A stretch of 64,000 bases of DNA from Candidatus Heimdallarchaeota archaeon. Lineage in GTDB: Archaea; Asgardarchaeota; Heimdallarchaeia; Heimdallarchaeales; Heimdallarchaeaceae. The stretch's first letter is position 1. Every line of letters begins with the position of its first letter. The notes beneath the pieces were generated by a model. It made no database searches, had not been told where the DNA came from, and saw nothing but the letters and a program-made list of their open reading frames with translations. Below are positions 3,002 to 56,501 of the stretch, piece by piece. The stretch covers positions 42,194-106,193 of the forward strand of contig JAEOSZ010000040.1 in the NCBI GenBank assembly GCA_016840095.1, read 5' to 3'. The position numbers and the translations under genes are program-made.

Positions 3002-3889
3002 TTAGTCAAAAATCGATTTAATGGAATCCTCAATAGTATACTTGGGTTGATAACTGCAACATTTAGCCAGTTTTGTGTTATCTATCCAACTTTTTGTTGG
3101 AGCTCTTTCAGAATCGGTGTATGTGATTATTGAACGTTTTTCAAAGATTTGTTCATATTTATTTATTAGATCAATGTTTGAAATCGGTTGATTAGCAGAA
3201 ATATTGAAAACTTCTCCTTCTATTCCAGTCATTTCTTGTAGTAAAATCAAAGCTGAACAAGTGTCCCTCACATCAATATAATCTCTTACATCTTCAGGAT
3301 GGGATATTTCAATTTTAAGTGTCTTTTCATGTTCATAGAATTTATCGTTCAAGTAGCCTGACAGTAGTTGGTTGGAAACACCTTTTCCGATGAATGAAGC
3401 AGGTCTTGTACAGATTACATCGATACCATATTTTTCGTGGAAGTTAAGAGCTAGATTCTCTTGTTCCTGTTTAGTTTTCCCATAGATGCTCATTGGGTTA
3501 ATTCGATCTTCTTCCCTAAGTGGTTTGTCTATTTCCTCAAAGGTTCCATATTGAGCAGAAGAACCTAAGATTAATAATCTACTCTCTATTTCAGCATCTC
3601 TAAATCCTTCTATGAATCTTTGAAAAGATTCAACATTGGTTGCGTACATTTCTTCTTTTGTTCCCCGGAATAAACCTATTAGATGAAAAACTAAATCTGG
3701 TTCTATCGATTTGATTTTCTCTTTCCAGCTGATTTCAGAGTTAAAGTTCAACGTCTCAAAATTATAATCAATTCCTTCAATTGCATTGAGATCAAAACCG
3801 TTTATTTCCCAATCAGGTCTCATGGATTTAATGTGACTTACTAAATTCTGTCCTAGAAATCCAGTTGAACCAGAGATTAATACTCTCAT
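3002..3889 (-). CDS. NAD-dependent epimerase/dehydratase (extended SDR)
   Basis: Probable start ATG 3889 (MRVLISGSTGFLG), which avoids the overlap with the upstream gene; GSSAQYG, YGKTK, RDYIDVRD. Confidence 0.85.
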   Translation of the reverse strand: MRVLISGSTGFLGQNLVSHIKSMRPDWEINGFDLNAIEGIDYNFETLNFNSEISWKEKIKSIEPDLVFHLIGLFRGTKEEMYATNVESFQRFIEGFRDAEIESRLLILGSSAQYGTFEEIDKPLREEDRINPMSIYGKTKQEQENLALNFHEKYGIDVICTRPASFIGKGVSNQLLSGYLNDKFYEHEKTLKIEISHPEDVRDYIDVRDTCSALILLQEMTGIEGEVFNISANQPISNIDLINKYEQIFEKRSIITYTDSERAPTKSWIDNTKLAKCCSYQPKYTIEDSIKSIFD

Positions 3890-6101: not shown

Positions 6102-8342
6102 TTGATGAGAACTAAATATAAAATCAGTTTTTTTATCGTCATAACACTTGTTTTTCTGACTCAGAATTTCAATTCAGAAATAGAAGCTTTGGATGAAGAA
6201 AACTTTATCTTTGAAAAAGAATTTGAAGAAAGAATTTCAATGTTAGTTAATTCTCCTCCAATCAATATATTTTCAGATACAGACTTTGTTTCATTAGGTT
6301 TACCCGGAAATGGAAGTCAAGAAAATCCGTATAGAATAGAAAATTTACTTATTCAAGATTCATTTGGTTATGGAATTTATGTCAGTGGTGTATCTTCATA
6401 CTTTGTTGTTCAAAACTGTGTAATTCGCAACTCTCTGTATGAAGGAATGATTATCAACAATATCCATTTTGGTAATGGAAATATCAGCAATAATCTTATT
6501 GAAGACTGTGGAAATGTTGGAATGTTAGTGATAAATACAGATGGAATTTTAGTTGAAGATAACATTTGTATCAACAATGAAATTGGAATTGAGATGCGTT
6601 ACTCAGACAATGGATATATTTTCAATAATACATGTGAAGAAAATAGAGAAAGTGGAATGTATTTGAGAAATGAGCTACAAACTTGTACATATGAGAATAA
6701 CACCCTAATTAACAATAACATTTATGGAATGGATTTTCTCCAGGCAAATGGCTCTTTTGTTTATAATAACTCATTCATCAACAATGGTCTTCATATCTCT
6801 GAACTTGTATTTGAGAATTATCTAAATTATGTAATTCTTGATAACACTTTAAATAATCAAAAAATCGGGTATTTCACAAATGATGATTCTGTTTCGCTTA
6901 CTGATACAGAATACGGTCAGATATTTTTATTCAATTGCTCAAATTTTCTGATTGAAAATCAAATATTCGAGAAATCATTATTCGGTATTTACTCATATGA
7001 AAGTAATAATTGTACTTTCAGAAATAACACATTTGATAACAACTTAGCTCATGGAATTGATTTATATTACTCGAATGAAATTATAATTGACGCAAACACA
7101 TTTTATAACAATTCTAATGGACTGAATTTCATTGACACTTATGATATGATAATTTGTAATAACAGATTCTACAGTGATGGTTTGGTAATTGAGAGTGCAG
7201 ATGTGGAGATGCTAGCTACTTTTGAGGTTACAAATAATACTGTGAATGATAAACCCTTAGGATTTTTCATTAATGAGCATAATCTAGATTTATCTAGTTC
7301 AGTTCAGTATGGAGAACTACTGATTCTAAACTCTACAAATATTCATGTTTCTAACCAAAATATATCTGATACACAAGCTGGTTTCATTATCGCTTTCTCC
7401 AATTCATGTTCTCTTCAAGAATCAATATTTTCAAACATCATTACAGCTATTCTTGTTTATGGATGCAACGATATAACAATTTCAAATAATGTGATCGAAG
7501 AAAATTCCGATGGAATTATAGCACTATATGTTGACCACTTGGATATAAAGAACAATGTTATTTCAAATAACCTAGATGATGCTCTTGAAATACAGTATTG
7601 CACCCAAATCCTTGTTGATAATAATACTTGTGAATATAATGCTCAGTGGGCTTTTATTTTCTTGTACAACTCTTTCTTGAATATAACCAATTCAATCATT
7701 CAGTATAACACATTTGGGAATATCTTTGTGAGATTTACAGATAATTTACTGGTTTACAACACTACAAGTACTAATTCAGAATGGGGTATTTATCTTGCAG
7801 ATATTACAGATAGTGAGATTCGTGAATCAAAGATTAGAGATCATAACGTTGATGGGATTTATATGATAAATAGTTTGAATGTATATTTCTATGCAAACAA
7901 TATCAGTGGTAGTTTCTTTGGAATAAAGGTAAAAATAACTGATTACTGTACTTTTACTCACAATACTATTCGAGATAATCACCAACGAGGAATCTCATTT
8001 GACGCTCAATGCGATCATAATCTTATTTATCAGAACTATTTCATTAATAATCAGCTAGATGATACAACAGGTAGATTGTCTTACGGATATGATGACGGCT
8101 ATAATAACACCTGGTACAATATAGCTACACAAACAGGAAATTGGTGGTCAAATATAGAAAGTTATGCTTACAGAATTGGCGGTTATGGATATTCAGTAGA
8201 TATTTATCCATTGAATCCAAAAGATCCCCCAACACCAACGAATACTCCAACTACAACAACTAATTTGACCTTTATTATTCCAACTATTTTTGGGTTTAGT
8301 ATGATGGTCATTTTTAGATTAAGAAAACGATTGAGAATCTAA
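6102..8342 (+). CDS. Secreted, membrane-anchored right-handed beta-helix (NosD/pectin-lyase-like) surface protein
   Basis: Signal peptide, PINIFSDTDF...GNGSQENPYRIENL cap, many N-x-GI PbH1 repeats, GNWWS...DIYPL closure, P/T linker, TM, basic tail. Confidence 0.85.
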   Translation: MMRTKYKISFFIVITLVFLTQNFNSEIEALDEENFIFEKEFEERISMLVNSPPINIFSDTDFVSLGLPGNGSQENPYRIENLLIQDSFGYGIYVSGVSSYFVVQNCVIRNSLYEGMIINNIHFGNGNISNNLIEDCGNVGMLVINTDGILVEDNICINNEIGIEMRYSDNGYIFNNTCEENRESGMYLRNELQTCTYENNTLINNNIYGMDFLQANGSFVYNNSFINNGLHISELVFENYLNYVILDNTLNNQKIGYFTNDDSVSLTDTEYGQIFLFNCSNFLIENQIFEKSLFGIYSYESNNCTFRNNTFDNNLAHGIDLYYSNEIIIDANTFYNNSNGLNFIDTYDMIICNNRFYSDGLVIESADVEMLATFEVTNNTVNDKPLGFFINEHNLDLSSSVQYGELLILNSTNIHVSNQNISDTQAGFIIAFSNSCSLQESIFSNIITAILVYGCNDITISNNVIEENSDGIIALYVDHLDIKNNVISNNLDDALEIQYCTQILVDNNTCEYNAQWAFIFLYNSFLNITNSIIQYNTFGNIFVRFTDNLLVYNTTSTNSEWGIYLADITDSEIRESKIRDHNVDGIYMINSLNVYFYANNISGSFFGIKVKITDYCTFTHNTIRDNHQRGISFDAQCDHNLIYQNYFINNQLDDTTGRLSYGYDDGYNNTWYNIATQTGNWWSNIESYAYRIGGYGYSVDIYPLNPKDPPTPTNTPTTTTNLTFIIPTIFGFSMMVIFRLRKRLRI

Positions 8343-26434: not shown

Positions 26435-27622
26435 TTATCTGAATAACCACATTTTGGTCCATTTATACTCCTTGATAATAGAGTATAAGATTTGAAGATT
26501 CAACAATTCACCATTAATTCCATTTGCCATTATAACTGCCCCTTGACCAGTAACTGGATTTGCAATCATCAGACAAGTAGCTCCTGGCAAATTTGTACCA
26601 GGATGAGTTATTAGTAGCTTATCTTCTTCTTCAATCAAAAAGATTCCCAATCCTTGACTTGTAAAACCAAAGTATTTCGCTGGATCTAGTTTTAGTTGTG
26701 AAGAGAGCATCTCTTTTGTCATTCCATGTGATAATAGTTTATTTGATCTACCATGAAATGAGTTCATAAGTTCAACTAAGAATAAGCATAGTTCAGTTGG
26801 TGTAGTAAGAATTCCTCCTTGACCTAAAGCTGTTGGATGTAAGCCAGATTCTCTGGCTATACCTTGATCATCATGAGGGACAATAGATTTACTTTTTAAT
26901 TCTCCAGAAGGAAATTCGAACGTACTATTTATCATATTAAGAGGATTAAAAATTACGTCTTTGATGATCTTAGGGAAAGAACTATCTTCCAAATCTTCTA
27001 GGAGTTTTTGTATTATGATGTATCCGAAATTTGAATAGTTGTGCTCTTTACCAGGTAAGGAATTAACTTCGACAGCATCATTGATAGCAGGTGATACACC
27101 ATTCAAAACTTGTTCAATTGTAGGAATTTTGCTATCTTCAACGCCGAACATAGAATCAGGACGATTTATACCTGAAGTATGTGTTAACAAATGTCTAAGA
27201 GTTATTCTATTTTTTTGAGTAAAATCATTAGTTGGAATCTTCCAGGTTTTGAGATATTGGTTAACATCACTATCTAGAGAAATAAGTTCCCTATCTATTA
27301 AGTTAAGAATCGCAACAGAAGTGAAAGTTTTAGAAGTTGAACAACCTTCAAATAGAGTATCTAAGGTTACTTTCTCATTTGTTCTAACGTCTTTAATACC
27401 ATAACAGGCAGACCACTCAATTTCGAAGTTGTTGATAACTGATATACTTATACCAGGTACCTTTAACTCCTGCATTCTCTCTTCTAATTCACTAGTATTT
27501 TCCCAAACAGGTAAAGGCATTCCTGTTTGCATATCCAATAAAGGAATTTCATTAACAATAGTTTCAAAATGTTTCTTAGCAGATTGTTTGTCTTTATTAT
27601 AAATTTCTAATTCATTTTTCAT
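26435..27622 (-). CDS. Serine hydrolase, beta-lactamase/AmpC family
   Basis: VPGISI, STSK (SxxK), LRHLLTHTSG, YSN, HPG. Confidence 0.88.
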   Translation of the reverse strand: MKNELEIYNKDKQSAKKHFETIVNEIPLLDMQTGMPLPVWENTSELEERMQELKVPGISISVINNFEIEWSACYGIKDVRTNEKVTLDTLFEGCSTSKTFTSVAILNLIDRELISLDSDVNQYLKTWKIPTNDFTQKNRITLRHLLTHTSGINRPDSMFGVEDSKIPTIEQVLNGVSPAINDAVEVNSLPGKEHNYSNFGYIIIQKLLEDLEDSSFPKIIKDVIFNPLNMINSTFEFPSGELKSKSIVPHDDQGIARESGLHPTALGQGGILTTPTELCLFLVELMNSFHGRSNKLLSHGMTKEMLSSQLKLDPAKYFGFTSQGLGIFLIEEEDKLLITHPGTNLPGATCLMIANPVTGQGAVIMANGINGELLNLQILYSIIKEYKWTKMWLFR

Positions 27623-44857: not shown

Positions 44858-45034
44858 AATTAATTCACCTTAATATTCCAGACTAGTTTCATCTAACATA
44901 GTCTTGTTGCTCTGCCAATACTAGTTTTTGTTTATAAACCTTCTTTTTAGCAACTGAAGATGAGTTTTTGAAGTCTCTCTGTGAGTTTTCAAGAAGAGAT
45001 AACTTTTATTTATGGAGTAGAATATGGTCAAGTA

Positions 45035-46363
45035 ATGAAAGACAATTTCAAGTATGATTTAGGTTTGGTAAACGGCAAAGTGTACATAAATGGTAGTTTC
45101 GTTGCTGTGGATATCTATATCAAGGATCAAGTCATTTCAGAAATTGTCCCTCAAGGAACAGAACTTCCTTGTGAGAATATAGTCAGTTGTATAAGCAAAT
45201 TAATTATGCCTGGATTTATTGATCCACACGTTCATATCAATCTTGACTTGGGAGAATTTAGATCAGCTGATGATTATGAAAGTGCTTCCAAAGCTGCAGC
45301 ATTTGGTGGAATAACCACTTTTATAGATTTTTTAGACCCTATAATAAATGTTGATGAGTTTGAAAATAGATTTGCTCAAAAAATGAAGGAAGCTAAAGAT
45401 TCCTATATCGATTACTCTTTTCACACAACAGTTGGTAATTTTGACGATGATGTAGATAAATTAGTAGCTATTTCTAGAGCCAATGGTATTCCATCAATTA
45501 AGATGTTTACAACTTATTCAGAGAGTAACCGAAAAATATCAAAAGAAAAACTTCAGGAATTCATGAAAAACTCAAGTAAAACAAGTACATTGATTCTTGT
45601 ACATGCTGAAAACGATTACATGATATTGAATGCAGAAGTTGATGATACTTTAGAGCAATATGAAAGATCCAGACCAGCAGAGGCAGAAATACTTGAAATT
45701 GAGAAATTAGTAAGAATTGTGAAGGATATACCAGGAAAGCTCTATATCGTTCATGTAACATGCGGTTCTTCAATAAACCTCATCAAAGAAGAGTGCAAAG
45801 AACTAATCGGAAAGAACATATTCATAGAAAGTTGTCCTCAATATTTCCATTTAACTAAGGATTTATTTGAACAAGATAATGGTAATCTATTTCTCCTTGC
45901 ACCACCTTTGCGATCAGCTGATGAACAACAAAAACTCAAAGAAAACATTTCCTCAATCCAAACAATAGGAACTGATCACTGTCCTTTTACTAAAGAAGAA
46001 AAAATGAGGTACAAAGTTGCAAGTAAAATACCTAAAGGACTAGGAAGTTTGGAGTACAGTTTTTCTCTTATGTATCACCTGTTTGGAGAAGAAATTATCG
46101 ATAAGTTTACAATAAATCCCGCAAAGATTCATAACCTCTATCCAAAGAAAGGTGTAATTCAAAAGGATTCAGATGCTGATTTTGTTATTTTTAGTCCAGA
46201 TAAAACACTGATGATTGATTCAGGCCATTCCAGAACAGATTATAGTCCCTATGAAGATATGCTAATTAATGGTTTAATTGAATCCACAGTTCGAAGAGGA
46301 GAATTTATAGTAAAAAACAGGAAACTAGTAGCAAAAACCAATGGACAATTTATCGAACGTTGA
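45035..46363 (+). CDS. Dihydropyrimidinase/hydantoinase-family amidohydrolase
   Basis: PGFIDPHVH, AAAFGGITT, SIKMF (carbamylated Lys), VHAE, YIVHV, GTDHCPF; probable start ATG 45035 (ORF track 44981). Confidence 0.88.
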   Translation: MKDNFKYDLGLVNGKVYINGSFVAVDIYIKDQVISEIVPQGTELPCENIVSCISKLIMPGFIDPHVHINLDLGEFRSADDYESASKAAAFGGITTFIDFLDPIINVDEFENRFAQKMKEAKDSYIDYSFHTTVGNFDDDVDKLVAISRANGIPSIKMFTTYSESNRKISKEKLQEFMKNSSKTSTLILVHAENDYMILNAEVDDTLEQYERSRPAEAEILEIEKLVRIVKDIPGKLYIVHVTCGSSINLIKEECKELIGKNIFIESCPQYFHLTKDLFEQDNGNLFLLAPPLRSADEQQKLKENISSIQTIGTDHCPFTKEEKMRYKVASKIPKGLGSLEYSFSLMYHLFGEEIIDKFTINPAKIHNLYPKKGVIQKDSDADFVIFSPDKTLMIDSGHSRTDYSPYEDMLINGLIESTVRRGEFIVKNRKLVAKTNGQFIER

Positions 46364-46370
46364 AGATATG

Positions 46371-46438
46371 TTATTTGGGTTTTATTGCAATTCTAAATTC
46401 TGAACTGAACTCTTTTGCTGTTTATGTATTGTGTTAAT
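46371..46438 (-). pseudogene. Older relic copy of Zn-ADH 3' end (1-bp deletion)
   Basis: INTIHKQ-(frameshift)-KEFSSEFRIAIKPK* vs ADH tail INEIHSQLKEFKADFRTVIVP*; 12/21 identical. Confidence 0.75.
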
Positions 46439-46472
46439 AGTTTCGGTTGATATTAGGAGATAAGAAGAAAAA

Positions 46473-47351
46473 CTAATCTCTTACCAGTTCTAAGAAGTCT
46501 ATTACAGTAGGCATAACGGCTGTAACATCGGAATAGAATAAACCATGTCCAACTTCTTCAATTTTCTTGTGTACTACAATTTCAATTTTTTCTTTTGCCA
46601 TTTTAACACATTTATCAGTCATCATTCCACCAAGTTTAGAATCTGCTTGAAGTAATAAAGTTGGGCATTTAATCTTTTGGAGAAACTCAGTACTATCGTA
46701 TATCTTCCATTGTATTCTAAAAGCTTCAATATTACTAGCTCCTGCTTGTGTTTTATGATCTAGTTTAGTAAGGTTTTGAGCTAAGAATAATAACCATGGA
46801 ATGCTCCCTGGTGCATCACCCCAAGCAATTGTTTGATCACTATTTGGGATAGGTATTTGATGTTTGAGTAATTTGCTGAGAAGTGAATCACTTGATTTAT
46901 CTTCCTTCGCCCATTCTGACCAAACCTTGAAGGTACCTGAATTAATTGCAGCTTGTACTTGTTGTTCCATAGATGCAAAATCAATAGTTATATCTCCAAT
47001 GATGATTCCCTTTACTAAATTAGGCATATCAGCTGCTAATAAGAATGCAACAGCAGCACCCATTGAATGACCAAAAATAACTAAGTCTTCTTTAACAATA
47101 TTTTCAACAAATGATTTTGTATCTTCTAAATACATATTGAGTGAATAAGTATCTGTGCGTCCAGAACTCCCATGTCCTCTGAAATCTATTGCATAGACGT
47201 GCCATCTCTGCGTTAGAAAAGGCATAATTGATAGATAACTTTGCCATCTCCAAGAGTTTCCATGAAGAAGCAGAAGAGGTGGACCAGATTTGGGACCTTC
47301 TGCATAATTGAGTTCTACATCTCCTGTGTGATACTTCTTTTCAACTAACAT
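46473..47351 (-). CDS. Alpha/beta hydrolase
   Basis: PLLLLHG, DFRGHGSS, GHSMG, CPTLLLQ, GH. Confidence 0.88.
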   Translation of the reverse strand: MLVEKKYHTGDVELNYAEGPKSGPPLLLLHGNSWRWQSYLSIMPFLTQRWHVYAIDFRGHGSSGRTDTYSLNMYLEDTKSFVENIVKEDLVIFGHSMGAAVAFLLAADMPNLVKGIIIGDITIDFASMEQQVQAAINSGTFKVWSEWAKEDKSSDSLLSKLLKHQIPIPNSDQTIAWGDAPGSIPWLLFLAQNLTKLDHKTQAGASNIEAFRIQWKIYDSTEFLQKIKCPTLLLQADSKLGGMMTDKCVKMAKEKIEIVVHKKIEEVGHGLFYSDVTAVMPTVIDFLELVRD

Positions 47352-47445
47352 AATATTACACTAACTTAGTACAAAATATAAACTTTTACTATACTCAAAT
47401 AATTACCTTTTACTTCATTTTAATGATCAGGGACATGAAATTGAG

Positions 47446-47505
47446 TTAGGGGATTATCACAGTTCTAAAATCTGCTATAAATTTTTTCTGCTGATTATGA
47501 ATATC
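47446..47505 (-). pseudogene. Relic copy of Zn-ADH 3' end
   Basis: DIHNQQKKFIADFRTVIIP* vs EIHSQLKEFKADFRTVIVP* (49216-49275); 13/19 aa, 45/60 nt, no gaps, 6 synonymous third-position changes. Confidence 0.88.
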
Positions 47506-49156
47506 ATCTCTTTCTTTTCTTATAGTGTTTGTTAAGAATAGTTACTACTAATAGTGTAGGAAATAGTAAGAAGAAGCTTAAACTGATATTATTCAATCCT
47601 TCGTTCAGAGGATAAGGATCTGTTGAATTAGATCTACCTTCAATCAAGTATGGTTTTCTCTTATTCCAATTTGACCAATGATTCCCTTGTTTAGTGTTAG
47701 GATCCCACCAGGTGTTATTGTTTCCATCATCCTTGGCTTGAGAAACTCCATCTAGGTTGTTGTCCTTGAAATAATTATGATGAATCAGATTATTATCACA
47801 AAAGGAAGTCAATTGAATACCGTGTTTCTCATTTTCTCGTAGCATAGTGTAGGTAAAAATACAATCATCAGAACCTTCGACATATATTCCAATAGTGTTA
47901 TTATTGCACTTGTTACCAATTAGAATGTTATTATCAGAACCAAGTAGATGAATCCCATAATACTTAATGTTATCACATCTATTATCTGACAGATAGTTTT
48001 CGGTTGATTCTATCAACCAAATCCCATAGTGTGTAGTGTTGCTAAAAACATTTTCAGAAATGAAAATATTGCTAGAATAATATACTCTAACTCCAGCTTC
48101 ATTGTTTTCACAAATATTGTCATGTAATGTAACTTCTTTACATCTTACAATGAAGAAAGCTCTGTCAGTATTTGCTATTATTTGGTTACTTATAGAAACT
48201 TCTGTACAGTTAACTAAAGTAAACTGTCCATAAATTGGTTCAAGAAAGGAATGTTTGTTCAAATTAACAAAAAATCCAAACAGTTTATCATTTACCAAAT
48301 TATCTTCTACTGTATAGGTTAAATATTCTGTAGTATTCCAGTCTTCTATAGCTAACCCATCATTGGTGAAGTTATTGCCTTTTATGATTGAACCTGTACA
48401 CATATCCATTCTATTCATGAATTCATTATCTCTTACAGTATTATTGATTAGTGAAGCAGTTACAGACATGAAAAGATAGAGTCCCCAACGATTATTGTTG
48501 GATATAGTATTGTTTTCCAGTGATAAAAGAGAACAATCCCTTGTATTAACTCCAATATAATTATTTGAATCAAATGTGTTATTTCTTAATGATACCTTGG
48601 AAGAATATTCAATATTGATTCCATCATAAAAATTGTTGGAACATGTATTGTTAACAATAGACACAAATGGAGAAGAATGTATATGGATACCATCTCTGCT
48701 ATTAATACATGTATTGTCTTGAATTACAGCTGCAGGTGCATCAAATATTCTAATTCCAAGGAAGTAATTACCAATACAGGTATTATTGATTATCTTAGTA
48801 TTTGCAATTCCTACTTCTTCAATATTTATTGCAGTTTGATCAGCATTAATATAGCAGTTCCTAATAACAAAAAACATATCAGTAAACTCAATATCGATTC
48901 CATATTCTTGGCTAGTTGATATATAATAGTTCTCTATAATGAATGGATTATTTGAGCTTCCATTTCCAGGAAAACCATAATCAGTGAATGTGCTGTCATT
49001 ATGTATAATAATTGATTCGAAGGGTGTGTAAGATGAAAAATCTTCTTGCATTTTTGTATTAGCATGATTGTATTGAATGTCATTTTGAGAAGAGAAAAGT
49101 GCTATCAATAGAATTAAGAAAAAAACAAAGAAGTTAGGTTTAGTGCTCTTCCTCAT
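47504..49156 (-). CDS. Secreted beta-helix (NosD-like) surface protein
   Basis: Signal peptide, GFPGNGSSNNPFIIENY cap, PbH1 repeats, GNHWS...DPYPL, TM, basic tail. Confidence 0.85.
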   Translation of the reverse strand: MRKSTKPNFFVFFLILLIALFSSQNDIQYNHANTKMQEDFSSYTPFESIIIHNDSTFTDYGFPGNGSSNNPFIIENYYISTSQEYGIDIEFTDMFFVIRNCYINADQTAINIEEVGIANTKIINNTCIGNYFLGIRIFDAPAAVIQDNTCINSRDGIHIHSSPFVSIVNNTCSNNFYDGINIEYSSKVSLRNNTFDSNNYIGVNTRDCSLLSLENNTISNNNRWGLYLFMSVTASLINNTVRDNEFMNRMDMCTGSIIKGNNFTNDGLAIEDWNTTEYLTYTVEDNLVNDKLFGFFVNLNKHSFLEPIYGQFTLVNCTEVSISNQIIANTDRAFFIVRCKEVTLHDNICENNEAGVRVYYSSNIFISENVFSNTTHYGIWLIESTENYLSDNRCDNIKYYGIHLLGSDNNILIGNKCNNNTIGIYVEGSDDCIFTYTMLRENEKHGIQLTSFCDNNLIHHNYFKDNNLDGVSQAKDDGNNNTWWDPNTKQGNHWSNWNKRKPYLIEGRSNSTDPYPLNEGLNNISLSFFLLFPTLLVVTILNKHYKKRKR

Positions 49157-49215
49157 AATGTTCAGCCAGTGTAAAAACTATCACTTAAACAATTATAAGA
49201 TTTTGGTGCTGAGGT

Positions 49216-50262
49216 TTACGGAACAATAACTGTTCTAAAATCAGCTTTGAATTCTTTTAACTGACTATGAATCTCATTTATGTTTTTAGCTTTTAATGGA
49301 ACAGTTTTTGTTACTACTTTATTTAAGTCCAATTTTCCTTGATCTGCAAGATCTAAGATTACAGGAATTTCAGATAGTAAATGGTCAGATACTCCAATTA
49401 TCTCTTTTTCTCTACCAATTACTTGATATGAATCAATACCAAACTTATCAATAGTTATTCCAGCTATTCCTAGTCTTCCAAATCTAGCTAGTGATCTTAC
49501 TCCTTGATTCATTGTAATTGGCAGTCCAATAAGCTCAAGTGCAACATCTACTCCATCATTGGAAGTAAGTTCCATTATTTTTGCAGCAGGTTCATCATCT
49601 TTTGCATTAATTGGAATTGCACCCATTTCCATCGCAGTTTCAAGTTTCTTAGAATCAATATCTACAGCATAAATGTCTCTAGCTCCAAGAGCTTTTGCCA
49701 ATTGTAGAGCAGAAATACCTAAACCTCCTAGTCCAAAGATAGCAATATTCTCTCCTTCTTTGAAACGAGTCTTTCTAAGTGCATGAAGAGATGTTGAAGA
49801 TGAACACATCATTACGGCTGCATGTTCATATGAAATTGATTGTGGAAGTTGAAATAATCCTCTAGGAGGTACCTTAATGTATTCAGCATATCCCCCATCA
49901 ATGTTCTTGCCAATCATTTTTCCTTCTACACAAAATTGTTCAGTTCCTTGAATACAATATCTACATTTTCCACAAGTAACCATATAGTTAAGACATACTC
50001 TATCTCCTACTTTGAAATCAGAAACATTGTTTCCTATTTCTTCTATCTCACCTGCTACTTCATGTCCTAAAGTTATTGGAAGATAATCAACTGAAGAGAT
50101 TCCATCTCTGTAATGAACATCAGAATGACAGATTCCAGCAGCTTTAATTTTGACTATAACTTCTCCCGATTTAGGTTCAGGTTTAGGTACTTCCATGTTT
50201 TCTAAATTTTCTCCTATCTTGACCAATTGAACTGCTCTCATAAATCCTAAATTTCTACTCAT
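49216..50262 (-). CDS. Zn-dependent (MDR) alcohol dehydrogenase
   Basis: GICHSD, LGHEVAG, CGKCRYC-x7-C structural Zn site, GLGGLG. Confidence 0.92.
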   Translation of the reverse strand: MSRNLGFMRAVQLVKIGENLENMEVPKPEPKSGEVIVKIKAAGICHSDVHYRDGISSVDYLPITLGHEVAGEIEEIGNNVSDFKVGDRVCLNYMVTCGKCRYCIQGTEQFCVEGKMIGKNIDGGYAEYIKVPPRGLFQLPQSISYEHAAVMMCSSSTSLHALRKTRFKEGENIAIFGLGGLGISALQLAKALGARDIYAVDIDSKKLETAMEMGAIPINAKDDEPAAKIMELTSNDGVDVALELIGLPITMNQGVRSLARFGRLGIAGITIDKFGIDSYQVIGREKEIIGVSDHLLSEIPVILDLADQGKLDLNKVVTKTVPLKAKNINEIHSQLKEFKADFRTVIVP

Positions 50263-50368: not shown

Positions 50369-53300
50369 TTGAAAAGAATAAAATTTTATGTAAAATTGTG
50401 TGTACCATTTTTAGTTTTTTTGATCACAATACCAACATCTGTTAACGCACTTTATAATGATTTTAGACTAATGAATCTTAATGCACTTCCAGATTCAGAT
50501 GACTGGATACAAACAAATGGTCCATATGGAGGAATAATCCATACTATAGAAGTAGATCCGGTACAACCAAATGTTCTCTTTGCTGGTGGTGCAGGAGGTA
50601 TTTTCAAATCTATTGATTCAGGTGTTTCTTGGAGTAATCAACCAAGATTTCTTGAAGGGAATAAGAGAGTTGAAAAAATAATAATCTCTCCAGACAATTC
50701 CAACATCTTGTTTGCAATTGCTGAAAGTCCAATTGCTGGTATGAGTGGAGAGGTTTTTAGAAGTTTGGATGGAGGTCTTAATTGGACAAAGATTGATCAA
50801 AGCAAGTCCTTCAAATCTTTAGCTCTACATGATAACAATCCTACAGATATTATCAGCTGTACACAGGCAAGAGAGGTTTTGTTTTCTGATAGCAGAGGGA
50901 GTAGTTGGGGAGATATTACTGGAGATTTACCAATTTCAGAATTTGGGTTCACAGACGTAGCTATTAGTTACGAAAATACCTATTGGGTTGGAACTAAGAA
51001 TGAAACATATGGAAATGGTAATTTGTATTTAACAACAGATGGAGGGATTTCTTGGAATAGTATAGATATAGGTCAACCACCCGATACTTCTGTTAGGAGT
51101 ATTCTTGTTCATCCAGAAGACAATGAAACTATCTATGTCTCTCTTGAGAAAGCTTATGATAAGATTCAAAATCCAGCGGAATCATATCTGTTCAAAACTG
51201 AAAATGGAGGTCAAAGTTGGGCAAAATTATTCCCTCCTTACAATGGAAGAATTCTTGGAATTGATCCAGGTTCCAGTTATGATACAATCTATCTTGGCTA
51301 TGGAAATTTAGTATACAAAACAAAGAATGATGGAATAAATTGGACAAGGATAGATCCAATGTTAACACCTGGTATTAATACAGGTGACATTAGAGATATT
51401 GCAATAGATCCAACTGATGGAAACATAATTTATCTGCCTATTTCGAGTCATGGATATTTCAAAAGCACAAATGAAGGAAGCTCATGGACACGCATAACTC
51501 AAGGATTACTTAATACAGGAATTGTACTTATGGCTGTTCCCAATGTTGCAGGGAGTGATACTGTGTATGTAACAGGCTGGGATGGTGAAGGTACATTTAG
51601 AACTGATGATGGAGGAGAAACATGGATTCGTCTAGATGGAGGTGGGATTGATCACTCGTTCCCAGATGAAATAAAAGTTAACCCCCTAGATCCTTCAGTA
51701 GTTTGGGAGATAAGTGATTTGGGAGGGTTATTCTTATCAACAAATTATGGCACAAATTGGACGCAACAATTTAATGCTCATAAATATGATGGCTTTCGAT
51801 TCGGATCAGTTCAAGCTCTATCCCCTGCTCCATCAAATTCGAGTATTATCTATGCAGTTAAAAGTGGCTATGGAATTTTCAAAAGTACAGATGCTGGTAA
51901 AGACTGGGATTTCTTAAGACATTCAGAAGTAGACTATTCATACACTTTAGCTGTACATCCCACAGATCCTAACACGGTTTATAGTGGATATAATTCTAAA
52001 CCATTTCAAGATTGGGCAATGATTAGAAAAACAGTCAATGGAGGTGATTCTTGGACTACTGTGCTAAATGTTACATCATCTAAGGGTATCACTTCGATTG
52101 TAATTGATGATGATAATCCAGATATTATATATGCAGCAAGTATTAGTGAACTAGGTGGAGAAATTTACAAAAGCATTAATGCTGGTTCAAGTTGGATAAA
52201 ACTAAATGATAATTTCACTATGTTTACAGTTATGGGACAACCTCAGCTAGTTGTTGACCCCAGTAATCCTTTTATTGCATATACTGGGTCCTGGCTAGCA
52301 GGAACTTGGAAAACATATGATGGGGGAGAAAATTGGGAGTTACTTCATGATGCACCTATGTCTGCAACAGCTCTAAGCTTGGATTCTCAAGACAGTAGTA
52401 TTATTTATCTTGCAGACCGTTCTACTCCAACATTATGGAGATCTACAGATGGTGGAACTGTATGGAATGAAATAGCTGATTTCTCAAGTGAAGGGGCTTT
52501 CTTAGTGAATACAGTTATCGCTAATGATTCAACAATCTATTGTTCAACCTTTGGTCCTAGTGAACTAACGGGGAAACTATTCAAATCAACAAACAATGGA
52601 GTAAGTTGGACTGATATAACAGGTATATTACCTAGAAGTGTTTTAGATATTGCAGTTGATCCTAACAACCAAGATAATGTTTATGTTACAACTCATCTTT
52701 TCGGAGCATATAGATCGTTTAACGGGGGAACTGATTGGGAACTGATTCATGATTTTCCAGATATAGGCACATTTGATATTGAAATTGATCCGGTTGATCC
52801 ATCTATTTTGTACTCTTGTGGGTTAGGTAATTTGACAATACCTACTTGGGTAACACCAGGAGGACACGATATAACAGGAGATCCAGGGGTGTATAAATCT
52901 ACAAATTCTGGTCAAAATTGGACTCAAGTTTTATCAACAGAACATAAAGTGCGAGGAATTAGAATACATCCAGCTAATCATGATGTTCTCTATGCAGCTG
53001 TCCATGATGAAGGATTATATATGAGTAATAATGGAGGATCAAGTTGGAGTCCATATAACACGAATCTTGACAGTACAGTTCTAACTTCTCTAGCAGTTCA
53101 TGAAGAGATAATATATGTTGGAACCCAAGGATATGGTGTATATTCTGGAGATATCATCTTAGCAGATTATTCAGTTACATGGCAAGCAGTTAGAAGTAAC
53201 AAACCTATTCCACCAGTGTATAGTATAGATCTACTAATTGATCCTGAAGATTCCAATAGAATCTATGTAAGCTCAAATCCTGGAGGGCTATATCGCACTG

Positions 53301-54589
53301 ATGATGGAGGAGTTACCTTCTATGATAAGAATTTTCAAACACCAACTGTTATTGTGGATGATCCATACCGACAAGGGTACTATCCTTTTGCCATAAATCC
53401 TAACAATACAGAAGAAATATGGTTAGGGACATGGGGTAGAGGGATGTTTAAATCCTATGATGGAATGGATTTCAATACTCATTCTTTTGGAGCTGGATTT
53501 ACAATGCTAGACAAGCACATCTACAAAATTGTTATTGATCCATATGTGCCTAAAACGGTTTATGCAGCTACAGAGGAAGGTGTTTATAGATCATCAGATG
53601 ATGGAGCTACTTGGAGTAATTTTAGTGTTGGGTTGGATAATTTTCAAGTAAGAACTATAGCTATTACAGCAGATGGAACATTGATCTGTGGTACATTGGG
53701 GTATGAACTTTATTCATACAATACTTCTGCAAGTAAATGGGAACAGATGGAAAATTTCAATGGCTTTGGTTTGACTTGGCCAATTTGGAATGATAGACCA
53801 CTGTATCAGTATACTACTTTATTGTTTCATCCAACAGACCCAGATATAGTTTATCTAGGTGCTTTCCCGGTGGGTATGTTTAGAAGTACGGATGGTGGAG
53901 AAAGTTGGAAGGAAATAAATGTAGGGTGGACTAATGATGGTGTGTTTTCATTGGTTTTTCATCCTGATAATCCTGATATTATCTATGCAGGTACGTATAA
54001 TGGTGTTAGCCGTTCTACAGATGGTGGGGATCATTGGGAGATGTGGGACGAAGGTTGGCCAGATGAGCAATGGACTTTCGCAATAGACTTTGATCCACTT
54101 GATTCAAATATCATGTATGCTTGTTCAAAAAATGGTGAAAATGAAGGAACAGGACGTACAGGTTTCAAAGGAACTGTTATGAAAAGTATAAATGGAGGAG
54201 CTACTTGGTTCTCTATTACAAATGGATTGAATTTATCTCAAGAATTCTATCAAATTACTGTAGATAAAAATAGTCCTAATATTCTGTACTTATGCACACA
54301 AAACGAAGGAGTTTTCATAAGTTATGATACTGGAAATTCTTGGGAAATGTGGAATGACGGTTTATCAACTATATATGCTGGAACAAACGGAAATAATGTT
54401 GCTCAACCAATGATACAAACAGTAGATGGTAGATTCATATATTTTGGTACGGCTGATTCAGGAGTATTTCGTAGAAAAGCTGAAGGATACATAATAATAC
54501 CTGAAATTAGTTTACAAATACCTTTAGTAGTTTTACTCGTTTTACCAATCTCTTTAGTTGTGATAAGAATAAAAATGAGAACTAGATGA
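50369..54589 (+). CDS. Large secreted BNR/Asp-box repeat (VPS10/Ycf48-like beta-propeller) membrane-anchored protein
   Basis: Many (K/R)S-x-(D/N)GG-x-(S/T)W Asp-boxes with DP-x-N-x2-(I/V)Y strands; IPEI + TM + basic tail. Confidence 0.85.
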   Translation: MKRIKFYVKLCVPFLVFLITIPTSVNALYNDFRLMNLNALPDSDDWIQTNGPYGGIIHTIEVDPVQPNVLFAGGAGGIFKSIDSGVSWSNQPRFLEGNKRVEKIIISPDNSNILFAIAESPIAGMSGEVFRSLDGGLNWTKIDQSKSFKSLALHDNNPTDIISCTQAREVLFSDSRGSSWGDITGDLPISEFGFTDVAISYENTYWVGTKNETYGNGNLYLTTDGGISWNSIDIGQPPDTSVRSILVHPEDNETIYVSLEKAYDKIQNPAESYLFKTENGGQSWAKLFPPYNGRILGIDPGSSYDTIYLGYGNLVYKTKNDGINWTRIDPMLTPGINTGDIRDIAIDPTDGNIIYLPISSHGYFKSTNEGSSWTRITQGLLNTGIVLMAVPNVAGSDTVYVTGWDGEGTFRTDDGGETWIRLDGGGIDHSFPDEIKVNPLDPSVVWEISDLGGLFLSTNYGTNWTQQFNAHKYDGFRFGSVQALSPAPSNSSIIYAVKSGYGIFKSTDAGKDWDFLRHSEVDYSYTLAVHPTDPNTVYSGYNSKPFQDWAMIRKTVNGGDSWTTVLNVTSSKGITSIVIDDDNPDIIYAASISELGGEIYKSINAGSSWIKLNDNFTMFTVMGQPQLVVDPSNPFIAYTGSWLAGTWKTYDGGENWELLHDAPMSATALSLDSQDSSIIYLADRSTPTLWRSTDGGTVWNEIADFSSEGAFLVNTVIANDSTIYCSTFGPSELTGKLFKSTNNGVSWTDITGILPRSVLDIAVDPNNQDNVYVTTHLFGAYRSFNGGTDWELIHDFPDIGTFDIEIDPVDPSILYSCGLGNLTIPTWVTPGGHDITGDPGVYKSTNSGQNWTQVLSTEHKVRGIRIHPANHDVLYAAVHDEGLYMSNNGGSSWSPYNTNLDSTVLTSLAVHEEIIYVGTQGYGVYSGDIILADYSVTWQAVRSNKPIPPVYSIDLLIDPEDSNRIYVSSNPGGLYRTDDGGVTFYDKNFQTPTVIVDDPYRQGYYPFAINPNNTEEIWLGTWGRGMFKSYDGMDFNTHSFGAGFTMLDKHIYKIVIDPYVPKTVYAATEEGVYRSSDDGATWSNFSVGLDNFQVRTIAITADGTLICGTLGYELYSYNTSASKWEQMENFNGFGLTWPIWNDRPLYQYTTLLFHPTDPDIVYLGAFPVGMFRSTDGGESWKEINVGWTNDGVFSLVFHPDNPDIIYAGTYNGVSRSTDGGDHWEMWDEGWPDEQWTFAIDFDPLDSNIMYACSKNGENEGTGRTGFKGTVMKSINGGATWFSITNGLNLSQEFYQITVDKNSPNILYLCTQNEGVFISYDTGNSWEMWNDGLSTIYAGTNGNNVAQPMIQTVDGRFIYFGTADSGVFRRKAEGYIIIPEISLQIPLVVLLVLPISLVVIRIKMRTR

Positions 54590-54689: not shown

Positions 54690-56501
54690 ATGAAATATAA
54701 AGCACAGAAAAGAACCATTTTGACATTTATTACTTTAGGCATAATTTTTAGTCTCGGACTTAACATCAATTCTGGTTTCAATATAAAAGCTATTTCTAAC
54801 CTTGAAAGTAGAAATGAGAACAAATTGAACTATACACCAAGTGGACCTATATTGATAACTCATGATGATAATTTTACAGATTTGGGTTTTTCAGGAACAG
54901 GTGTGAATGGTGATCCTTACAAAATCGAGGAACTGAGTATAGAAACTTCCAACTCTTATGGTATTCAAATAACAGGTGTTACAGCTTACTTTACAATTGA
55001 GGATTGTTATATTGATGCACTTCAATATAGTATCTATATTGTTGGACCTGTAGCTGGTCAGGTTCAAATTGAGAACAATACTTTGATCAATACAAATCAT
55101 GGACTCTACATAGAAAATCTAGATGATCTTGAAGTAAATAATAATACTTTCGAAAATTGTGGTCAATATTCAACCAGGATATATTTTAGCGATGATGCGA
55201 AAATAATAAACAATACATTTATTGGCAGTGAACAAGCCTATTTTGCAAATGCTCAATCTGCTACAATTGCTAACAATACTTTTATTGATACAGGATTAAA
55301 CATCTACACAAATACAGCATGGTATTTGAATCATATAGTCACTAATAATATAGTCAATGGAAAACCCCTCCTATTTCTTGCTAATCCTCAAAATATTGTG
55401 ATATCAGATAATATCTATGGACAAATAATAATTGGAGACGGTGATAATGTTACTATTAGAGATCAAGTTATTGGAAACACAGCAGTTTCAATTATTGCTG
55501 ATGTAGTAAATGACCTGAAATTGATTAACAATACCTGTCTCAATAATCGCTTTTATGGTATAGATATAAGCGGAATTAATGTATTAGTCGAAGATTGTGA
55601 TATAGGGTTTGTTAGCTCTTATGGAGCTATTGAAGCAAGTGTCTGTTTGAATATAGTAGTACAAAATTGTTATCTACACGACAGTAATTTTGGTTTAATA
55701 GCTGTAAATACAGCAAACATAACCACTTTCAATAACACTGTAGAAAATAATGTAAATTATGGTATAAGATATCAGAGCAATAATGAAGGATATGTGTTAA
55801 ACAATACAATAATCAATTCTGGAAATGGATTGAGATTTCATTCATTTGACCACTGTGAAATTGCTTACAATATCTTCGAAAATAGCCCATCAGGCGATTA
55901 TGGAATAAATTTTGATACAGGATGTAACAATAATACAATTCACAATAATTTCTTCTTGAACAATAATCCTGGAGGTATATCAGAAGTATTTGATGATGGT
56001 TTCAATAACACTTGGTATGATGTTAATACTTTAACTGGAAACTATTATTCAGATTATTCCGGTTCAGGAGATTATGTTATTGAAGGTAGTGCTGGATCAG
56101 TAGATCCATATGTAATAATTGATTCCATTGATCCCTCAATTGTTGTAAAATCAGCTGATTTAGAATATTATGAAGGTTCAACAGGCAATAGTATTTACTG
56201 GCAAGCATCAGATCAATATCCTAGATACTACCAATTGCTTATCGAAAATTCAGTTGTTAGAGCTGCAAGTTGGAGAAGCTATGATACAATTACCATTGAT
56301 GTAGATGGATTAGCAATAGGTGAGTACAATTACACAATTGTATTCTACGATATTGTTGGTAACTCTATTGCTAGTACAATAATAGTTACTGTAATTGCAG
56401 TGATCCCAGAATTTCAAAATCTGAGTATTTTACTTGTGTTACTGAGCATAATTTCATTTATCTCAATTAGTAGTGTTATCAAAAAGAGAAATAAAATGTA
56501 A
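54690..56501 (+). CDS. Secreted beta-helix (NosD-like) protein with Ig-like stalk and PEF-CTERM-like tail
   Basis: Signal peptide, GTGVNGDPYKIE cap, PbH1 repeats, GNYYSDY, GEYNYTI Ig-like domain, IPEF + TM + KKRNK; ATG 54690 (GTG 54681 possible). Confidence 0.85.
   Translation: MKYKAQKRTILTFITLGIIFSLGLNINSGFNIKAISNLESRNENKLNYTPSGPILITHDDNFTDLGFSGTGVNGDPYKIEELSIETSNSYGIQITGVTAYFTIEDCYIDALQYSIYIVGPVAGQVQIENNTLINTNHGLYIENLDDLEVNNNTFENCGQYSTRIYFSDDAKIINNTFIGSEQAYFANAQSATIANNTFIDTGLNIYTNTAWYLNHIVTNNIVNGKPLLFLANPQNIVISDNIYGQIIIGDGDNVTIRDQVIGNTAVSIIADVVNDLKLINNTCLNNRFYGIDISGINVLVEDCDIGFVSSYGAIEASVCLNIVVQNCYLHDSNFGLIAVNTANITTFNNTVENNVNYGIRYQSNNEGYVLNNTIINSGNGLRFHSFDHCEIAYNIFENSPSGDYGINFDTGCNNNTIHNNFFLNNNPGGISEVFDDGFNNTWYDVNTLTGNYYSDYSGSGDYVIEGSAGSVDPYVIIDSIDPSIVVKSADLEYYEGSTGNSIYWQASDQYPRYYQLLIENSVVRAASWRSYDTITIDVDGLAIGEYNYTIVFYDIVGNSIASTIIVTVIAVIPEFQNLSILLVLLSIISFISISSVIKKRNKM

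Follow-up and report, generated by a model that had tools for sequence, protein, structure and literature searches.

Displaced alcohol dehydrogenase 3' ends behind two cargo genes in a Heimdall-group archaeon: a candidate integrase-free displacement array

Behind an alcohol dehydrogenase (ADH) gene in the window, by which we mean the whole 64,000-nucleotide stretch of Heimdallarchaeota DNA that was analyzed, stand two unrelated genes, each followed by a copy of the ADH 3' end. How did accessory genes come to be stacked behind a metabolic gene whose end recurs after each of them? A preliminary description of this DNA likened the locus to an integron, with repeated insertion at one site and the newest cassette next to the gene. 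We lean slightly toward a different history, a two-step array of displaced 3' ends built by the host's own homology-anchored recombination and not by a cassette integrase. The features under discussion are as follows:

44981..46363, plus strand: convergent amidohydrolase gene (hydantoinase/dihydropyrimidinase-like; Pfam Amidohydro_1), the conserved right flank of the hotspot
46371..46448 (about), minus strand: relic 2, a decayed ADH tail with a 1-nt deletion, a stop changed to AAA and broken invariant residues
46473..47351, minus strand: cargo 2, alpha/beta-fold hydrolase of 292 aa with a GHSMG nucleophile elbow (Pfam Abhydrolase_1/6 and Hydrolase_4)
47352..47445, minus strand: 94-nt spacer upstream of cargo 2, with a TATA-like box (AAAGTTTATATTTTG) as read from the sequence
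47446..47517, minus strand: relic 1, a displaced copy of the ADH tail (60-72 nt), recognized by similarity to the live tail, with frame and stop intact (DIHNQQKKFIADFRTVIIP and stop)
47504..49156, minus strand: cargo 1, NosD/right-handed beta-helix surface protein of 550 aa (Pfam NosD and Beta_helix)
49157..49215, minus strand: 59-nt spacer in front of the beta-helix gene; contains a TATA-like box (CTTATAATTGTTTAAGT)
49216..49287, minus strand: live ADH tail, the last ~23 codons and stop, the copy homologous to the relics
49216..50262, minus strand: zinc-type ADH gene (MDR family; Pfam ADH_N and ADH_zinc_N), the anchor gene whose 3' end is repeated

The coordinates bear out the minus-strand layout described earlier: ADH, the 59-nt spacer, the beta-helix gene, relic 1, the 94-nt spacer, the hydrolase gene and relic 2, followed by 7 nt, the distance previously claimed, and the stop (46363) of the convergent hydantoinase-like gene. 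Each cassette in the window consists of one gene, preceded in its spacer by a TATA-like box of its own, and the two spacers show no significant similarity to each other. The 5' end of relic 1 overlaps the last codons and the stop of the beta-helix gene, and the ATGA shared by that stop codon and the start of relic 1 is present as claimed. The beta-helix protein carries an N-terminal signal/TM segment and a C-terminal TM anchor with a basic tail, and its nearest homolog (60%) is encoded directly behind ADH in genome G014. The best database match of the hydrolase is 55% identical.

That the repeats are copies of the ADH tail is clearest for relic 1, whose core (47446-47505) agrees with the live tail at 45 of 60 nt without a gap, against a best chance match of 36/60 across 6.9 million genome positions, so that the earlier report of a real tail copy free of indels holds. 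Relic 1 and the live tail were also recovered independently by a repeat search (72 nt, 74% identity). When the 3.44-Mb genome was scanned with a profile of 15 orthologous ADH tails, the window's own tail being left out, the three highest matches were the live tail (47.3 bits), relic 1 (37.4 bits, E 7e-9) and relic 2 (19.3 bits, E 0.003), and the next reached 10.3 bits. Relic 2 is identical to ortholog tails at 43-52 of about 72 nt. In Smith-Waterman comparisons with 63,610 genome segments it gave a p of about 0.015 against the ADH tail and about 2e-4 against relic 1, and nhmmer with the orthologous tail profile over the surveyed intervals gave 19.4 bits (E 2e-5). The preliminary description would have been refuted by a relic 2 that scored no better than random AT-rich intergenic DNA; as the third-best match in the genome, relic 2 is real.

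The two relics differ in how they have diverged. Orthologs of this ADH, 70-80% identical, occur in 17 of the 24 genomes of the genus, and residues L335, A340, F342, R343, T344, I346 and P348 are invariant among 13 orthologs. Relic 1 is changed at one of the seven residues that never vary among orthologs, while relic 2 is changed at three or four of nine and has in addition a frameshift and a lost stop; judged by these lesions, relic 2 is truly decayed. Relic 1 is probably a foreign or older allele, its divergence from the live tail largely allelic rather than due to decay, because its 75% identity falls inside the range of working orthologous tails (pairwise median 43/60) and its differences lie mostly at third codon positions (4/3/9 by codon position). 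Of the graded decay proposed earlier, the gradient at invariant residues is retained, and the overall divergence of relic 1 is largely of another kind.

The distribution of differences over codon positions also bears on a simpler history, in which the ADH end was duplicated in place as two identical copies, either because a long target site was doubled at insertion or because replication switched template, and neutral decay of the non-coding copy followed. Between live tails and relics elsewhere the counts are 1/5/10 for the relic in genome G004, 0/1/7 at a GH57 locus, 4/4/9 at C158 and 0/3/0 at C163; pooled with ADH relic 1, 35 of 60 differences (58%) fall at third positions, where a neutral copy set against a constrained one should give about 41%. 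ADH relic 1 and the G004 relic alone give 19/32, a modest excess. At the GH57 locus third positions account for 7/8 differences and 15 residues are unchanged, and we know of no transposition mechanism that produces 50-90 nt duplications of variable length. Duplication in place would suit repeats that always end at the stop codon and a damage gradient that does exist, but against the codon-position data we find it scarcely credible.

The geometry is not confined to ADH. About six to seven loci in this genome show it behind unrelated genes, with one to three cargo genes each, and a control on the opposite strand found no locus in this genome with the tail-cargo-relic geometry. In each of six relics aligned in detail, the copy begins 50-92 nt ahead of a stop codon and extends to it. 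This uniformity would allow a much broader reading, which we regard as a long shot: in Asgard archaea the gene ends at tail-to-tail junctions may serve generally as landing sites where genes are captured without an integrase, with a dedicated trigger. A candidate trigger would be a nuclease-induced break, aimed at the last 50-90 nt and repaired from a foreign template. If this reading were true, such arrays would be chronological records of gene flow.

Comparison with relatives reveals the ADH-hydantoinase interval as a hotspot, with 0 to 9 genes between two conserved genes among the 15 complete intervals of the genus. The amidohydrolase gene opposite ADH is conserved in 15 genomes, and in the three empty-site relatives its stop and that of ADH are 1 nt, 11 nt or about 90 nt apart. 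Interval modules are patchily distributed, carry no mobility genes and often lie in the opposite orientation. Twelve of the 15 intervals carry cargo and relics occur in only two, that of the present genome (G000, two relics) and that of G004 (one), so the earlier expectation that cargo number tracks tail number across relatives is contradicted; no further tail relics were present in eight metagenome loci (L044-L051) whose ADH is 65-78% identical to that of the window. Since most cargo changes at the ADH site left no relic, displacement is a minority outcome there. In G004 the relic, 89 nt long and 88% identical, sits directly behind a PadR-ABC-FtsX module that adjoins ADH in two other genomes too, and we read it as an independent third event at the same gene.

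Could an integrase have built the array? Integration into a gene's 3' end with restoration of the gene, followed by tandem accretion, is classic behavior of integrative elements, and the array is polarized; a tyrosine or serine recombinase, since lost or acting in trans, might then have inserted integron-like cassettes or elements now decayed. No integrase was found at the locus, in any of 16 related intervals or on the window's contig. The whole assembly holds one weak match to PF00589 (27.5 bits), on contig C106; no recombinase is among the Pfam assignments of the hydantoinase gene, ADH and the two genes between them, nor among the genes between 42.9 and 54.6 kb, where the open reading frames outside those four were judged from their translations only. 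Site-specific integration is further opposed by cassettes that are single genes with their own promoters, by tails that differ as alleles do and by the other loci, which use unrelated tails and have no common junction motif: the junction flanks of six events yielded none. The repeats share neither a boundary nor a hairpin. Relic lengths differ (about 62-72 nt for relic 1, 70-78 nt for relic 2, 89 nt in G004), neither relic 1 (z 0.18) nor relic 2 (z 0.35) folds better than shuffled sequence, and a modest hairpin (z -2.5) occurs in the live tail alone and is absent from the relics. We therefore consider site-specific integration very unlikely. What remains of the integron comparison is repeated insertion at the ADH 3' end and a plausible polarity; an integron-like mechanism, lacking an integrase, a fixed boundary, a hairpin and one relic per cargo, is not upheld.

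The same polarity and final geometry could be reached without an illegitimate join if a circle made of one ADH tail and its cargo, excised at another locus through recombination of two tails, integrated by a single crossover in the resident tail, in the manner of Campbell. Tails of 60-90 nt are long enough for rare homologous crossovers, but crossovers within about 60 nt at 75% identity are expected to be very inefficient, the 5' boundaries of the relics vary between events, and the first tail-cargo-tail unit would still require another origin. We judge this route unlikely, and return to displacement by one-sided recombination.

In which order, then, would the cassettes have arrived? The newest is probably the one next to ADH, because relic 2 abuts the hydantoinase stop and the live tail and spacer are contiguous with the beta-helix gene; the earlier suggestion to this effect is plausible, the 7 nt behind relic 2 resembling the 1-11 nt that separate live tails from the hydantoinase stop in the empty-site genomes L034 and L024. 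The 59-nt spacer aligns with the ADH-to-beta-helix spacers of L023, L031 and L035, and it is the best genome-wide match, though a weak one (10.4 bits), to a profile built from those three. Live tail, promoter-bearing spacer and beta-helix gene make up a unit that three relatives also have. The ADH gene is mosaic across the genus, which indicates frequent recombination there, and its live 3' end may itself be foreign, an allele that arrived with the adjacent cargo: the third-position excess and the shared unit support this, and the switch of nearest neighbor toward the 3' end is weak (15 versus 8 informative sites over the last ~140 alignment columns, in the two final bins).

Geometry alone does not tell on which side the anchor lay, and the order could be reversed. 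The beta-helix gene would then be the older resident, in the position it has in L023 and L031, and a block running from a truncated ADH tail through the hydrolase gene and relic 2 to the hydantoinase 3' end would have come later from a one-cassette donor; such a block would have used its right side for pairing, with the illegitimate join at the beta-helix stop. Four lineages do have the beta-helix gene behind ADH, and three of these belong to the window's hydantoinase clade. The hydantoinase gene, however, is closest to that of the sister genome L029 right through its 3' end, whereas ADH is the mosaic gene, and the heavier decay of relic 2 fits relic 2 as the oldest tail, though it is compatible with the reversed order too. 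This order seems to us quite improbable.

On the favored reading, ADH and the hydantoinase-like gene would originally have been convergent neighbors, their stops a few bases apart, and relic 2 would be what remains of the original resident ADH tail. A first import, from a related Heimdall-group lineage, would have brought an ADH end, a promoter spacer and the hydrolase gene; on the left it would have paired homologously with the resident ADH, and on the right joined without homology inside that gene, about 70-78 nt before its stop. ADH would thereby have stayed intact with an imported tail, the present relic 1, while the old tail was displaced downstream. A second event of the same type would have brought an ADH end, a spacer and the beta-helix gene, a unit known behind ADH in several relatives, with its right join falling within the tail that was live at the time, about 62-72 nt short of the stop and at or close to the ATGA, a possible 4-nt microhomology at the relic 1 junction. 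That join would have supplied the beta-helix gene with its stop codon. We infer from the sequences that joining was homologous on one side and illegitimate on the other, and likewise the donors, which of the two events came first, and the joint import of the hydrolase with an ADH tail. No donor was found: the hydrolase had no close homolog among 24 genomes of the genus (none at E <= 1e-20) or among 400 Asgard genomes (none at E <= 1e-60). To our knowledge, no experiment has demonstrated one-sided illegitimate recombination in an archaeon. Short diverged stubs of about 50-90 nt would not recombine with the live gene, and longer ones would lead to deletion of the cargo. The observed range of 50-92 nt requires the added assumption that longer stubs are unstable and that shorter ones escape detection.

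Read in this way, the locus is a datable, ordered record of the gain of single accessory genes in a Heimdall-group archaeon without mobile-element enzymes. Asgard archaea are the closest known relatives of eukaryotes, and if one-sided homologous recombination were regular among them, it would bear on how they exchange and stack genes.

Among known systems, integrons (attI, attC, IntI) resemble the window in their polarized stack, with the newest cassette probably at a fixed end and a repeat between cassettes. They differ in that the window has neither IntI nor attC-like folding, its repeat is a coding tail with variable boundaries whose number does not follow cassette number across relatives, and its cargo carries TATA-like boxes and thus promoters of its own, whereas integron cassettes are mostly promoterless, in one orientation, and served by a common promoter. 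In tandem accretion at the 3' ends of tRNA, tmRNA or protein genes (Dehalococcoides ssrA islands, cis-mobilizable elements), partial 3'-end copies separate accessory blocks as they do here; those repeats are integrase-made att sites with fixed cores, however, and the window has no integrase, no fixed core and copies that look like alleles. The minimal mobile elements of Neisseria, in which conserved genes flank variable cassettes that are swapped by homologous recombination, resemble the ADH-hydantoinase gap with its 0 to 9 genes, patchy modules and lack of mobility genes. Their exchange leaves no duplicated gene ends, whereas the relics of the window would mark rarer joins inside ADH.

The proposed joining has a counterpart in homology-facilitated illegitimate recombination, in which foreign DNA enters through one homologous anchor and one non-homologous join, as described for transformable bacteria (de Vries & Wackernagel 2002; Prudhomme et al. 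2002; Meier & Wackernagel 2003, as cited in PMC5361080) and for E. coli conjugation (PMC3240628). That process has been demonstrated by experiment in bacteria only, and for the window it is deduced from sequence. Also among the closest systems are the effector-immunity loci of the Vibrio cholerae type VI secretion system (T6SS), integrase-free arrays of sequential displacement for which the same model has been proposed (Kirchberger et al. 2017, PMC5361080), and the C-terminal displacement of rhs/CDI loci (Jackson et al. 2009, PMC2935791). There, as in the window, the 5' part of a gene is conserved, a new 3' end is imported with downstream genes and older ends are displaced in order; no integrase takes part, and the proposed mechanism anchors one side by homology and joins the other illegitimately. 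The window has two marks of such an array: its same-strand 3'-end copies lie downstream, each starting inside coding sequence and running to the stop position, and the oldest, relic 2, keeps its original downstream context 7 nt from the hydantoinase stop. In the toxin loci, however, what is displaced comprises a variable toxin domain and the matching immunity gene, a pair under selection, whereas in this Asgard host the conserved ~20-residue end of a metabolic enzyme would serve as a mere anchor and the cargo is unrelated to it. As we interpret it, the mechanism is close to the one reported from toxin loci of bacteria, and this one locus instructs more than it surprises.

Both displaced copies of the 3' end of ADH, the zinc-type alcohol dehydrogenase gene, were confirmed by a profile built from the nucleotide sequences of ADH tails of orthologs, the window's own tail being excluded. 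The locus lies in a genome of 33% G+C and is laid out, in minus-strand order, as follows.

Features of the ADH-hydantoinase interval (window positions)
50262..49216, minus strand: ADH, zinc-type alcohol dehydrogenase
59 nt: spacer from ADH to the beta-helix gene, with a TATA-like box
49156..47504, minus strand: NosD/right-handed beta-helix protein gene, with signal and membrane anchor
47517/47505..47446, minus strand: relic 1
94 nt: spacer from relic 1 to the hydrolase gene
47351..46473, minus strand: alpha/beta hydrolase gene
About 46448..46371, minus strand: relic 2, then 7 nt to the hydantoinase-like stop
44981..46363, plus strand: convergent amidohydrolase (hydantoinase-like) gene

Just upstream of ADH, on the opposite strand, a gene (50369-54589, plus strand) encodes a 1406-aa protein with numerous BNR/sortilin-like repeats and an anchor at its C-terminus; metagenome locus L044 has a 67% ortholog in the equivalent place. 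It is followed by a second NosD-like beta-helix gene (54816-56000, plus strand). The live ADH tail together with its stop (49206-49290, minus strand) can form a modest hairpin (GAACA-gttat-TGTTC as part of a longer stem; -8.5 kcal/mol, z -2.5). The relics do not have it, and it could be either a termination signal or a chance fold.

Over the final 60 nt of ADH, relic 1 is identical at 45 positions without gaps, against an ungapped maximum of 36/60 elsewhere on both strands of the 3.44-Mb assembly, and in a separate repeat search ADH tail and relic 1 headed the list of direct repeats (72 nt, 74% identity). Against a background of 63,610 genome segments, local alignment of relic 2 gave p of about 0.015 with the ADH tail and about 2e-4 with relic 1; in the surveyed intervals the ortholog profile scored it at 19.4 bits (E 2e-5). 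Genome-wide, the profile lacking the window's tail ranked the live tail first (47.3 bits), relic 1 second (37.4) and relic 2 third (19.3, E 0.003), and the fourth match reached 10.3 bits. Because relic 2 is the third-best match in the genome, the objection that it scores no better than random DNA fails. Scans for tail copies were exhaustive, both ungapped and by Smith-Waterman. An assembly artefact was ruled out, the copies being merely 64-75% identical and lying on a 106-kb contig, as was an origin from tandem ADH paralogs, since the profile found no further tail copy in the genome and only one ADH is present at the site in relatives.

Of 24 other species genomes in the genus, 17 have an ADH ortholog (70-80% identity), and in 15 genomes, this one included, a single contig carries ADH and the hydantoinase gene in tail-to-tail arrangement. 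Three of the 15 have an empty gap, with 1 nt, 11 nt and about 90 nt between the two stops; in the others it holds 1 to 9 genes, among them a CPT-like kinase, a PadR-ABC-FtsX module, an acetyltransferase-like gene with DUF6320, a nitroreductase, LRR, Ig-like and PAS-GAF proteins, and divergent NosD beta-helix proteins; no integrase or transposase was found among the cargo of the surveyed intervals. One ortholog, L033 (G016:C24:15847-16881), matches over its full length apart from a single in-frame TAA, which could mark a pseudogene or result from a sequencing error.

The preliminary description had proposed an integron-like array with one tail per cassette. That rule was not borne out: cargo is widespread, and the tail profile found extra ADH tails in the surveyed intervals of only this genome (two) and G004, another species (one), with no further relics at eight metagenome loci (L044-L051, 65-78% identity to the window's ADH), so that cargo count does not track tail count. 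Erasure of relics could hide some past tails. The G004 relic is a third, independent ADH-tail relic (89 nt, 88% identity; locus L021, G004:C107:108000-120500, positions 3366-3457 of the ADH-oriented interval) and reads IDSLEAEAINEMHHLLKEFKADFRIVIKL*. It lies directly behind the PadR-ABC-FtsX module, which the genomes G002 and G011 also carry beside ADH; homology between the G004 and G002 modules runs through the FtsX promoter and ends about 68 nt before the relic.

Within the genome under study, 2,933 gene tails were scanned against their own downstream DNA (8 kb ungapped, 6 kb by local alignment). About 6-7 relic-type loci, or roughly 2 per Mb, emerged behind unrelated genes, each with a live tail, 1-3 cargo genes and then a 25-92 nt tail copy ending at a stop codon; the opposite-strand control gave no locus of comparable score.

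Relic-type loci behind other genes of the genome
Window 10011-11735, GH57-family gene: M23 gene as cargo; relic 12737-12796
C158:10524-11249: relic 13033-13124, with two in-frame stops
C158:11304-12245: relic 14153-14187; the two C158 cases are nested
C163:159233-161032, minus strand: relic 157554-157606
C82:8984-9436, minus strand: relic 7773-7854
C122:32443-32769, minus strand: 25-nt match at 27129-27153

These loci bear on whether the tails differ through decay. Between species of the genus, working ADH tails agree at 37-60 of 60 nt (median 43), and relic 1, with frame and stop intact, shares 45 with the live tail and 39-48 with orthologs.

Differences between relic and live tail at codon positions 1/2/3
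ADH relic 1: 4/3/9
G004 relic: 1/5/10
GH57 (window): 0/1/7
C158: 4/4/9
C163: 0/3/0

Pooled over the five loci, 35 of 60 differences fall at third positions; the share is 63% among working orthologs, and about 41% is our estimate of what one neutral and one constrained copy would give. This excess suggests that most of the tail divergence dates from a time when both copies were coding and that the copies are alleles of different lineages, in which case raw identity would be unusable as a clock. The GH57 pair, which differs at 8 of 48 nt (7 at third codon positions) and encodes 15 identical residues, appears to be the clearest sign in the genome of working alleles from different lineages. Damage was scored at residues invariant among 13 orthologs: 1 of 7 is broken in relic 1 (L335Q), and 3-4 of 9 are broken in relic 2, which also has a 1-nt deletion and a lost stop. 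The graded decay first described for the three tails thus survives as a gradient of damage at invariant residues, smaller than the identities suggest.

The flanks bear on the order of events. Relic 2, at 7 nt from the hydantoinase stop, occupies the position of the live ADH tail in empty-site genomes and probably marks the original ADH-hydantoinase junction. The spacer behind the live tail aligns with the ADH-to-beta-helix spacers of three related loci (L023, L031 and L035) and is the best, though weak, genome match of a profile built from them; the closest beta-helix homolog (60%, in G014) also lies behind an ADH. These observations suggest that live tail, spacer and beta-helix gene form one unit common to relatives, and the proposal that the newest unit adjoins ADH is consistent with both this unit and the place of relic 2. 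Homology between the two spacers was dropped: a 16/19 match was suggestive, but the relatives' spacer profile missed the second spacer. Dead hydantoinase tails beside the ADH tails, as duplication of the whole junction would leave, were not found by tail profile or direct alignment (p 0.45-0.56), at a power kept low by the poor conservation of hydantoinase tails.

The best fit to the sequences is sequential 3'-end displacement by host recombination. DNA imported from a related lineage would pair at one end with the body of ADH. Its far end would be joined non-homologously within the resident tail of ADH, and the displaced tail would persist as a downstream stub. The junction of relic 1 falls within the final codons of the beta-helix gene, whose TGA comes from ADH-derived sequence at an ATGA common to ADH; beta-helix orthologs stop at similar positions, with basic tails that differ in length. 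In an alignment of ADH orthologs from loci L021-L035, the sequence closest to the window's ADH shifts from L021/L023/L024-like (120-540) to L029-like, that is, like the sister genome (600-900), and back to L021-like (last 60-120 nt), so that ADH appears to be a mosaic across the genus. The hydantoinase gene is nearest L029 through its 3' end, and the two patterns together mildly favor an anchor on the ADH side over the reverse scenario. For the hydrolase gene, no close donor match was found in the genus, 400 Asgard genomes or the protein database (best 55%). To account for the narrow spread of relic lengths, the model needs an added assumption on stub stability and detection.

Dedicated machinery of the integron kind is not supported. 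The single PF00589 (tyrosine recombinase) match in 3.44 Mb is weak (27.5 bits) and on another contig (C106:7940-8095); one such match is few even at 89% genome completeness. Folding was not found in relics 1 and 2, the distance from relic start to stop varies (about 62-72, 70-78 and 89 nt), and the flanks of six events have no common motif. Aloposons, tRNA-targeting elements with giant genes (PMC8813620), are unrelated.

The same displacement model has been proposed for Vibrio T6SS effector-immunity arrays (PMC5361080) and rhs loci (PMC2935791), likewise without an integrase and with scar-free replacement thought to be commoner there too (PMC5361080; PMC2935791). The ADH locus, which would be a clear two-step case of displacement in an Asgard archaeon, resembles those arrays in its displaced 3' ends without an integrase, and its likeness to integrons is one of geometry alone.
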